In this document: positions 32,325 through 33,932 of the stretch, piece by piece
How positions within the stretch are numbered: the first letter of the stretch is position 1
Layout: each line of letters opens with the position of its first letter
From: a candidate division WOR-3 bacterium UBA2202
Lineage (GTDB): Bacteria; Hydrothermota; 32-111
Direction: 5' to 3'
DNA: 64,000 bases
Assembly: GCA_002327905.1 (NCBI GenBank)
Contig: DCUY01000104.1
Coordinates: 7,904 to 71,903, forward strand
The notes under the pieces: generated by a model
Seen by the model: the letters and a program-made list of their open reading frames with translations, nothing else
What the model was told of the DNA's origin: nothing
Databases searched by the model: none
Position numbers and translations under genes: made by a program

Positions 32325-33065
32325 TTACTTTCCGATATAGGAATAAATTGGTTCCGATTTCACCGGATAATCGTTATATATTTTCCCCTCAAGGAGTTTT
32401 CCGGTCTTATGCTTATTAAATCCACCCCATTGTTTAAAGAAAAATGGTATGCTCTCTTTTTCACTCATATCTCTTAGCTTCAAAACCCATTCTTCCTTTA
32501 TGGGTCTTGCGCCCGCCCCTGATTCTCCTCCAACGATAACCCAATCAATGCCCTTCAAGGATATCCGCCCTATGGGTCCAAGAAGGGGTTCAAAAGATAT
32601 AAATTTGATTTTTGAATCTATCTCTTTCAATTCTTTTATGCGATATACATATTCATTCATTTCAACAGTTACACCCATCCAAATATTGTCAGACCAATTT
32701 AATTTATCATTTAATTCAAGCAATCTCTCAGAACGCTTTGTTAATATCTGAAACTGAATGTGCTTACAGTCATTCATAACATTGAAGACTTCTTTAATGT
32801 AGCTTAAAGGAATATCCTTGTGAAACAAATCGGACATCGAGTTTACAAAAACTCTTCTTGGAGATTTCCATGTATAAGGTGCTTTTAAAGCATTCCTTTG
32901 CAGTGTCACTTTAAATCCGTTTTTGTATTGTTTTACACCCATCCTTTGCAGACGAAAGGCGAACTTCTCGGCATAGCAGTTCATACATCCCGGACTGATT
33001 TTTGTGCAGCCCGTTACAGGATTCCAGCTCATCTCTGTCCATTCGATCTTAGTTTTTCCTGACAT
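32325..33065 (-). CDS. DUF5131 (phage Gp37/Gp68 family) three-Cys-motif protein
   Basis: N-terminus [29 protein letters not shown] (CX6CX2C) as I recall it for PF07505; 246 aa. Confidence 0.6.
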   Translation of the reverse strand: [246 protein letters not shown]

Positions 33066-33932
33066 TTATCTCCTTTTTTCCATTCCATTTATCAAAGACT
33101 GTGCTATTGGTATTGCAGTTTTCGCACCTTTAGAATTACCCGCAGCAAAACATAATAAATAGATAGGACTATTTTTACTATTATAGAATATTTTGGGATT
33201 TTCTACAACCCCTGCAAATTCCTTTTTCAGTTTTCTGGATAAATATGTAATAACATTCTTATAATTGGTTCTTCCTATATTTTCAGTCTTTCCAAATAGA
33301 GTTTCTTCTTCCTCAATTTGATAGAATTCTTGTTCCCATTCATTGTCACCAAATAATTCATTCAGTTTTTTTCTGTTGCCCTCTTCAATTTCACCATCTT
33401 TTTTCAGAAGTCGCATAGCACCAATCCCTAGTGGGAAGAAATACCACATGTCAATTGCTTTTGTTTGTGCAATGGCTTTTATTGTTTCCCACTTAACCTG
33501 CATTCCAAAGGGATCAAGAAACAAAACCGCTCTATATTTTTTCCAATCATAATTATGGCAAATGTCCGTTACTGCTTTATTAGCATCATCTTTTTTTATT
33601 TCATAAGTTACAGAATATTTTTTCACTTCCAATTCCAATTCTTTACATAGTTCAGAATCATTTTCGATAAAAATATATTTATTGAATTTGGTTTCCAATT
33701 CAAGAGCTTTTATAACTGATCCTTTTGAGTATTCGGTAAACTCGTCATTGAATAGCAATTGCTCATCTGATTCACTATAAATTTTCCCACATCCAGCAAA
33801 AGCATCAATATAAATTGTTTCAAAATACTTAGCTCCTTCATTTGTGGTAAATATTTTCATATAGGTTTTTAAATATTTTTCAAGTATTTCAAGTTTTTGT
33901 TGAGTCCAATTTCCTCCCCATAACTGTTCCAT
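33066..33932 (-). CDS. Partner protein of the three-Cys-motif protein (TcmP-like, TIGR04474 candidate)
   Basis: Stop/start abuts the DUF5131 gene (33065/33066). N-terminus WTQQKLEILEKYLKTYMKIF...IYIDAFAGCGKI is MTase-motif-I-like; 288 aa. Assignment rests on gene pairing plus my recollection of the family. Confidence 0.4.
   Translation of the reverse strand: MEQLWGGNWTQQKLEILEKYLKTYMKIFTTNEGAKYFETIYIDAFAGCGKIYSESDEQLLFNDEFTEYSKGSVIKALELETKFNKYIFIENDSELCKELELEVKKYSVTYEIKKDDANKAVTDICHNYDWKKYRAVLFLDPFGMQVKWETIKAIAQTKAIDMWYFFPLGIGAMRLLKKDGEIEEGNRKKLNELFGDNEWEQEFYQIEEEETLFGKTENIGRTNYKNVITYLSRKLKKEFAGVVENPKIFYNSKNSPIYLLCFAAGNSKGAKTAIPIAQSLINGMEKRR

Follow-up and report, generated by a model that had tools for sequence, protein, structure and literature searches.

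A mobile two-gene cassette of a predicted methyltransferase, TcmP, and a predicted radical-SAM enzyme, DUF5131, in a candidate division WOR-3 bacterium

In a 64,000-nucleotide stretch of the candidate division WOR-3 bacterium UBA2202 (assembly GCA_002327905.1, contig DCUY01000104.1, positions 7,904 to 71,903; hereafter the window), the gene of a DUF5131 (Gp37/Gp68) protein follows directly on tcmP, the gene of the three-Cys-motif partner protein, and we report that the two form a self-contained mobile two-gene cassette. TcmP is likely to be a methyltransferase dependent on S-adenosylmethionine (SAM), and DUF5131 is predicted to be a small radical-SAM barrel of the spore photoproduct lyase (SPL) clade. 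The reading that we favour, offered tentatively and with rather less than even confidence, is that the pair is a self-contained, horizontally mobile, SAM-dependent module that modifies DNA bases in conflicts between hosts and mobile elements. What we show is to which families the proteins belong, which folds are predicted for them and which motifs they conserve, that the two genes are obligately adjacent, co-evolve and are mobile, and that they are embedded in defence and prophage regions.

Results

Adjacency and co-evolution of TcmP and DUF5131

Using the TcmP profile we collected 80 genome loci, to which the neighbourhood counts refer. DUF5131 adjoins TcmP in 73 of them, with 68 of these 73 pairs co-directional and DUF5131 immediately downstream; an initial annotation of the window had raised the question of co-conservation elsewhere, and the pairing lies far beyond chance. 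The other seven loci comprise two that are cut by a contig end and five, from four cyanobacteria and one verrucomicrobium, in which a radical-SAM gene of the Rv2578c/PA0069 type, a clade described as SplB-like and SOS-linked (PMC3765255), stands beside TcmP. All 78 loci with room for a neighbour therefore have TcmP adjoining an SPL-clade radical-SAM gene, 73 of them DUF5131 and five SplB-like, so that the partner of TcmP is always an SPL-clade radical-SAM enzyme. One of the alternative genes, in Lyngbya sp. PCC 8106 (locus L032, 7227-9191, minus strand), carries a LAGLIDADG intein; the radical-SAM genes in the same position beside TcmP in L024, L061 and L067 are intein-free and encode ~320-370 aa.

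The two families also co-evolve, with a mirror-tree correlation of r = 0.47 that none of 2000 permutations reached (0/2000), and DUF5131 is the more conserved, at a mean pairwise identity of 62% versus 52% for TcmP. Clustering of 956 neighbouring open reading frames (ORFs) from the 80 loci yielded no conserved third gene, the largest cluster covering 11 loci, and no nuclease conserved with the pair. The pair most similar to that of the window (84% and 70% identity) has unrelated genes on its flanks. Both families are large, with at least 5,222 clusters at 50% identity for TcmP and at least 8,000 proteins for DUF5131, and the genes are arranged as a methylase-first tandem, as a reversed tandem or, often, convergently.

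Natural fusions of TcmP to DUF5131 were sought and rejected, the long matches (P0241, P0123) being tandem self-duplications and probably assembly artefacts. A Thermoflexales metagenome-assembled genome (MAG; L062, 1202-4015, plus strand) has, directly downstream of TcmP, a 937-aa in-frame ORF in which DUF5131 (residues 5-234) is continuous with the Type I methylase domains HsdM_N and N6_Mtase; this is either a real fusion or an assembly error with a lost stop codon.

Family assignments and predicted folds

The DUF5131 protein had been assigned to the Gp37/Gp68 family (PF07505) in the initial annotation, and a hidden Markov model (HMM) search bore this out over the entire profile (E = 2.5e-94; 315.8 bits against a cut-off of 28.9; positions 1-243 of 243). 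The CX6CX2C motif reported for this 246-aa protein is present as C20-x6-C27-x2-C30, and this cysteine triad is invariant across 50 DUF5131 homologues, as are GGESG (179-183) and FFFKQWGG (208-215). A confident AlphaFold model built on 50 homologues (predicted local distance difference test score, pLDDT, 86.2) had as its best structural match SPL (SplB; PDB 4fhc), and in the sequence network of RadicalSAM.org DUF5131 likewise neighbours SPL. Membership of the canonical radical-SAM superfamily was not supported, with no match to PF04055 at E <= 0.01 and a cysteine spacing of CX6CX2C rather than CX3CX2C, and neither was membership of SPL itself, to which DUF5131 has no HMM-level sequence similarity. 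DUF5131 is best described as SPL-like rather than as an SPL, and a [4Fe-4S] cluster with reductive cleavage of SAM may be expected from its predicted radical-SAM fold.

The partner, for which TcmP (TIGR04474) had been proposed, matches that family as well (E = 2.1e-55; 188.5 bits, cut-off 53; profile 1-257 of 263), and the IDAFAGCG motif noted in it was found within YIDAFAGCG. Motif I thus reads Y41-IDAFAGCG-49, and motif IV reads F138-LDPFGM-144. The closest structural matches of a likewise confident AlphaFold model built on 46 homologues (pLDDT 89.9) were RlmJ (6qe5, 2oo3), the best of them, and Trm1 (3axt, 2dul), with a class I Rossmann methyltransferase fold; RlmJ is the 23S rRNA m6A2030 methyltransferase and Trm1 the tRNA m2,2G26 enzyme. 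It is from this fold and from the conserved motifs I and IV that SAM-dependent methyltransferase activity appears likely. Among TcmP proteins of 12-49% identity, K13, Y20, G47, D140, P141 and L260 are invariant and F45 nearly so, the pattern that would be expected of a live SAM and catalytic site. When the TcmP profile was aligned to Escherichia coli RlmJ using hhalign, the motifs fell in register (YIDAFAGTG/YLDTHAGAG, FLD-PYGMQV/LIDPPYEMKT and DLWYLFP/ALWYPV). However, TcmP had no Pfam match to the RlmJ family (PF04378), and its motif IV, DPFG in the window protein and DP(Y/F)G in the family, differs from the DPPY of RlmJ; we take it to resemble the DPFG motif of Trm1.

Organisation of the pair

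The initial annotation had described the 288-aa gene as abutting its neighbour, with stop and start at 33065/33066, and the sequence agrees, the junction reading ...AGGAGATAA|ATG... with the tcmP stop (33068-33066) set directly against the DUF5131 start at 33065. It is equally tight in relatives, with a gap of -4 to +30 nt in 49 of the 68 co-directional pairs. Because of the abutting junction, the AAGGAG sites before both genes and the promoter candidate upstream, the pair looks like a bicistronic unit of its own (Table 1). The tcmP promoter site is a consensus match; a promoter scan of the region returned 23 such sites against 18 +/- 4.5 expected, so that alone it is weak evidence.

Just downstream of DUF5131 lies a 33-aa ORF (MSKSYSDLRKMTKDELINIMVSRNETRFSDRIC; 32174-32275, minus strand) with its own AAAGGAG ribosome-binding site. 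Gene calls in related metagenome contigs include this ORF as well; in the closest relative an unrelated gene of 81 aa occupies the position.

Table 1. Coordinates of the TcmP-DUF5131 pair, its signals and surrounding features; positions are those of the window unless a locus is named.
Feature	Position	Strand	Details
DUF5131 (Gp37/Gp68) gene	32325..33065	(-)	246 aa; predicted non-canonical radical-SAM enzyme
tcmP (three-Cys-motif partner protein)	33066..33932	(-)	288 aa; predicted class I SAM-dependent methyltransferase, RlmJ/Trm1 type
Translational-coupling junction	33063..33075	(-)	AAGGAG 33075-33070 within tcmP 3' end; TAA 33068-33066; DUF5131 ATG 33065-33063
tcmP ribosome-binding site AAGGAG	33940..33945	(-)	7 nt 5' of tcmP ATG (33932); read from the sequence
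Candidate sigma-70-like promoter TTAACA-17-TATAAT	34095..34123	(-)	11/12 consensus matches; in 236-bp spacer upstream of tcmP
Membrane-type ORF	34169..34684	(-)	171 aa; upstream of pair
HSDR_N_2-like protein	34685..35533	(-)	282 aa; PF13588 31.1 bits (cut-off 25)
IS3-family transposase C-terminal remnant	31920..32120	(-)	66 aa; downstream of pair; rve_3 32.7 bits; NF033516 323-367 of 369
Type II restriction-modification-like cluster	27863-30935	(-)	N6_N4 methylases 27863-28537 and 29443-30714 flanking split endonuclease; 77-aa ORF; helix-turn-helix (HTH) gene
BsaWI-like endonuclease, two overlapping ORFs	28769-29080 and 28989-29438	(-)	
HTH controller-like gene	30717-30935	(-)	
BPTD_3080-family endonuclease and Mod operons with variable slot	L184 (Picosynechococcus pAQ5) 5989-12673; L185; L186; L187		

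Defence and restriction-modification neighbourhoods

Both window proteins match the PADLOC system PDC-M41 (PDC-M41A, 343.5 bits; PDC-M41B, 375.7 bits; genes adjacent), a 'guilt-by-embedding' candidate defence system and as such a prediction (Payne et al. 2024, 10.1101/2024.01.29.577857). The module is therefore already catalogued, as an NCBIfam pairing and as the PADLOC candidate PDC-M41. PDC-M30 differs in having a longer, divergent TcmP (~370 aa), as in gp45 of phage Bosnia, and our literature search found no test of either PDC-M41 or PDC-M30. Near neighbours of the pair show a modest excess of restriction-modification (R-M) genes (five N6_N4 methylases, Eco57I, ResIII and Type I HsdR), and genes further away are essentially housekeeping.

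About ten of the 80 loci have a tight operon of a BPTD_3080-family restriction endonuclease, TcmP, DUF5131 and a Mod-type methylase (~900 aa); these R-M-embedded pairs belong partly to one clade and recur in two others. Endonuclease-Mod operons also occur on plasmids without the pair, and the slot elsewhere holds a UPF0175/DUF3368 toxin-antitoxin pair or a small unknown gene. Since the same operons occur without the pair or with other cargo, the pair is optional cargo in a variable Res-Mod slot, and we rejected it as an integral subunit of a Type III-like R-M system, only ~10/80 pair loci having both endonuclease and Mod. Embedding of this kind in R-M operons is the behaviour from which PADLOC derived its PDC candidates. 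In Methylomagnum, a phospholipase of a cyclic oligonucleotide-based antiphage signalling system (CBASS) follows the Mod gene.

On plasmids, the pair stands beside the bacteriophage exclusion system BREX-1 in Nostoc and has reversed gene order in Acetobacter; the S. meliloti gene for TcmP, SMa2243, has hna (SMa2245) listed next to it. Identity with Ophion, a published radical-SAM defence system, was rejected, as Ophion consists of radical SAM, PHP and PRTase components.

Phage and viral copies

DUF5131 is present in 181 cultured phages. Gordonia phage Bosnia encodes it convergently to a divergent TcmP, with the immunity repressor on one side of the two genes and the integrase region on the other. 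The copy of Gordonia phage Bakery shows translational coupling to the gene of a C5-cytosine DNA methylase, and C5 methylases lie at most five genes from DUF5131 in Che9c, TChen and RcapNL. In IMG/VR a TcmP-type gene, often convergent, is adjacent in 38 of 80 DUF5131 loci, and the viral copies repeatedly have integrases, S24 repressors and Dam or C5 methylases in their vicinity.

Two further proposals were set aside. A tblastn search with the window TcmP, which found it in two phages only, had suggested that phage DUF5131 lacks TcmP, and this was an artefact of divergence, as curated HMMs find TcmP in Bosnia and in the 38/80 viral contigs. Compensation by extra domains in stand-alone DUF5131 proteins was also rejected, the effect on length being small (median 253.5 versus 248 aa, p = 0.012). 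In Mycobacterium phage Bipper, gp78 (L103, 2516-3004) encodes a DUF1643 protein (119 bits) and runs into the start of gp79, the gene of DUF5131; where DUF5131 stands alone in phages, DUF1643 may be a further partner that recurs beside it.

Genomic context in the window

GC content falls to 0.30-0.36 over ~27-37 kb, compared with 0.38-0.42 in the flanks, which bears out the AT-rich island of the initial annotation. The pair had also been placed between an IS3 remnant and an HsdR_N-like gene. Both are present, but the latter is two genes off, with the 171-aa ORF and the 236-bp spacer between. The HSDR_N_2-like protein gave a full-length match (329 bits) to phrog_17239, a phage family of unknown function. 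Its gene shares 20 nt with the K+ channel gene upstream and directly adjoins the membrane-type ORF; it may be a prophage-derived nuclease-like gene. Neither it nor the 171-aa gene stands beside the closest homologous pair, and both were rejected as parts of the module.

Downstream of the pair follow the IS3 remnant, an FN3-type lipoprotein gene, an HTH gene and the R-M cluster. The island does carry an R-M system, as had been claimed, but because the endonuclease is split, this local system looks frameshifted and decayed with its methylases kept; the split is present in related contigs as well. No tRNA genes and no convincing att-type repeats were found at the island edges. At least eight metagenome or MAG contigs, several of which come from hydrocarbon-degrading communities, share the gene arrangement of the window, and the window copy is therefore real and intact; it is an ordinary, intact member of its family and is not embedded in an intact known system.

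Two further features of the window were recorded. A 51-nt direct repeat, 80% identical (30950-31000 and 31849-31899), lies upstream of the minus-strand HTH and FN3 lipoprotein genes, and its second copy holds a perfect TTGACA-17-TATAAT (31888-31860), so that it looks like a duplicated promoter or operator segment. Cumulative GC skew has its minimum at ~41000-42000, with GC and AT skew negative over 1-41 kb and positive over 42-57 kb, and this switch at ~41-42 kb could be a replication origin, a terminus or a gene-strand switch.

Discussion

A proposed DNA-modifying module

RlmJ/Trm1-type enzymes flip a base out and methylate its exocyclic amine. Under the reading that we favour, TcmP would similarly bind SAM and take hold of a flipped base, which it would methylate or, at the least, present, while DUF5131 would hold a [4Fe-4S] cluster on C20/C27/C30 and cleave a second SAM to the 5'-deoxyadenosyl radical. 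This radical would abstract a hydrogen atom from the same nucleotide to give a modified base, and the mark could then shield the carrier DNA from restriction or tell self from invading DNA. In this scheme we infer that DNA is the substrate, in which order the enzymes act, what they produce and what purpose this serves. The link to DNA is drawn from the DUF5131-HsdM ORF of the Thermoflexales MAG, the coupling to a C5 methylase in Bakery and the Dam and C5 methylases nearby, and the role in conflict from the PDC-M41 matches, the embedding in R-M operons, the BREX-1 neighbour, the lysogeny region of Bosnia and the R-M excess near the pair. A DNA-modification or anti-phage role had been suggested in the initial annotation, and this agrees with the predicted folds, the PDC-M41 listing and the embedding in R-M operons and a prophage lysogeny region.

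Several observations weigh against this reading. The three best structural matches of TcmP are RNA methyltransferases or members of their families, and its hhalign match to RlmJ had a probability of only 16%. Profile searches of solved structures returned noise for both families (ferritin, chemokines), which is why folds were compared instead. In DUF5131 the GGESG follows the sixth strand, whereas the canonical GGE position is after the second, so that SAM binding is read from the fold alone. TcmP (~290 aa) has no obvious target-recognition domain, and this together with the high conservation of DUF5131 argues against sequence-specific recognition of DNA; both points fit better with an invariant substrate such as RNA, a nucleotide or a DNA lesion. 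Enrichment in defence islands, on which the initial annotation had called for neighbourhood statistics, is real but modest, and most neighbourhoods of the pair are heterogeneous rather than made up of defence genes. Next to around half of the viral DUF5131 genes no TcmP is recognisable, so DUF5131 can evidently work without it, and methylases are common in phage early regions, which makes their proximity merely suggestive. Finally, our literature search on DUF5131, TcmP, PF07505, Gp37/Gp68 and PDC-M41/M30 gave annotation mentions only, with no experiment on either protein and no biochemical or phenotypic study of the pair, as the initial annotation had said of its biochemical function.

Alternative readings

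One alternative, which we consider unlikely, is a scheme of the R-M or poison-antidote kind in which methylation by TcmP protects self and DUF5131 is the effector, its radical chemistry introducing lesions, cross-links or strand breaks into invading DNA that is unmethylated, with no nuclease. Gene order and orientation vary as they do in R-M pairs, the class of methylase beside DUF5131 is interchangeable (TcmP, Dcm-like or the HsdM fusion), and the cassette fills a Res-Mod slot that elsewhere holds a toxin-antitoxin pair; its location in a prophage lysogeny module, its standing as a PADLOC defence candidate and the lack of a conserved nuclease would also suit such a system. However, we know of no radical-SAM enzyme that acts as a restriction effector, and this counts against the proposal. 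Roughly half of the viral loci have DUF5131 by itself, with scarcely any additional sequence, and it would there be toxic to its own carrier unless another methylase protects it, neither protein has a specificity domain, and DUF5131 is too conserved to follow changing methylase specificities. A new form of R-M immunity, with a radical-SAM enzyme as its restriction arm and with self DNA shielded by the mark of TcmP or, in phages, by that of a Dcm-like or HsdM partner, is in our estimate improbable.

It is likewise unlikely that the pair alters a nucleotide of tRNA or rRNA, in the manner of RlmJ, Trm1 and the radical-SAM enzymes of RNA, with mobile elements carrying it so that translation is adjusted or protected in conflict. 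The RNA-methyltransferase character of the best TcmP matches speaks for it, and the absence of a target-recognition domain and the conservation of DUF5131 would suit an invariant structured RNA. None-the-less, the best match and network neighbour of DUF5131 is a DNA enzyme, and the alternative partner of TcmP belongs to the SOS-linked SplB-like clade. DNA as the target is also indicated by the fusion to HsdM, by the coupling of DUF5131 to DNA methylase genes and by the R-M operons in which the pair is embedded. Moreover, genes for housekeeping RNA modification would not be expected to be so patchily spread and so mobile.

We regard as quite improbable a synthesis like that of prokaryotic viperins, in which DUF5131 would turn a free nucleotide into an analogue that TcmP methylates, the product poisoning phage replication or transcription. 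A two-gene cassette in defence contexts, with no nuclease or specificity domain, would fit this, and a universal metabolite as substrate would suit the very high conservation of DUF5131. Yet TcmP resembles base methyltransferases that act on polymers rather than on small molecules, no nucleotide kinase was associated with the pair in the neighbour analysis, and phages themselves often carry DUF5131 in their early or replication regions, an odd place for a chain-terminator synthase.

Reversal of a DNA lesion by DUF5131, as SPL reverses spore photoproduct, with TcmP as a lesion-binding accessory or scaffold, has in its favour the structural match to SPL, the SOS-tied Rv2578c/PA0069 partners and the S24/LexA-like repressors near some viral copies, but we hold it to be very improbable, as the fully conserved methyltransferase motifs of TcmP favour catalysis over a scaffold, the distribution over phages, plasmids and R-M slots is more typical of conflict genes, and the S24 repressors are most simply ordinary prophage repressors.

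Significance and comparison with known systems

DUF5131 and TcmP are large families across bacteria, archaea, plasmids and phages without an assigned function. If the pair does make a new DNA base, or does carry out radical-based restriction, this would be new chemistry in phage-host conflict and would explain a gene present in hundreds of actinophage genomes. The module needs two genes only and is easy to transplant, and the fold assignments narrow the decisive assays to a few. The window copy has no special feature beyond its intactness and, from metagenome names, an origin in an anaerobic hydrocarbon-degrading community; nothing in the window makes it uniquely testable, and what is gained is that the question of function for a widespread pair is now better framed.

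Among known enzymes, SPL shares 11% sequence identity with DUF5131, which is ~100 residues shorter and has CX6CX2C in place of the CX3CX2C of SPL (4fhc), and SPL works without a methyltransferase partner. Likewise, RlmJ and Trm1 are housekeeping RNA enzymes without a radical-SAM partner, unlike TcmP.

Dnd/Ssp phosphorothioation and Dpd 7-deazaguanine modification are sets of enzymes on islands or mobile elements that mark DNA, in some cases by Fe-S or radical-SAM chemistry, and often, though not in every case, with a restriction component. TcmP-DUF5131 resembles them in concept, as multi-enzyme marking of DNA by islands and mobile elements, but we found no homology to either in sequence or architecture, and it has two genes only and no conserved restriction partner. 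The 'radical SAM mobile pair' of NCBIfam gave weak matches well below its cut-offs, protein A (TIGR04471) to DUF5131 (87 bits against 355) and protein B (TIGR04470) to the alternative partner of TcmP (44 bits against 410), so that neither belongs to these families. That pair consists of two radical-SAM proteins, whereas the window pair joins a methyltransferase to a radical-SAM protein, yet both are two-gene modules on mobile DNA.

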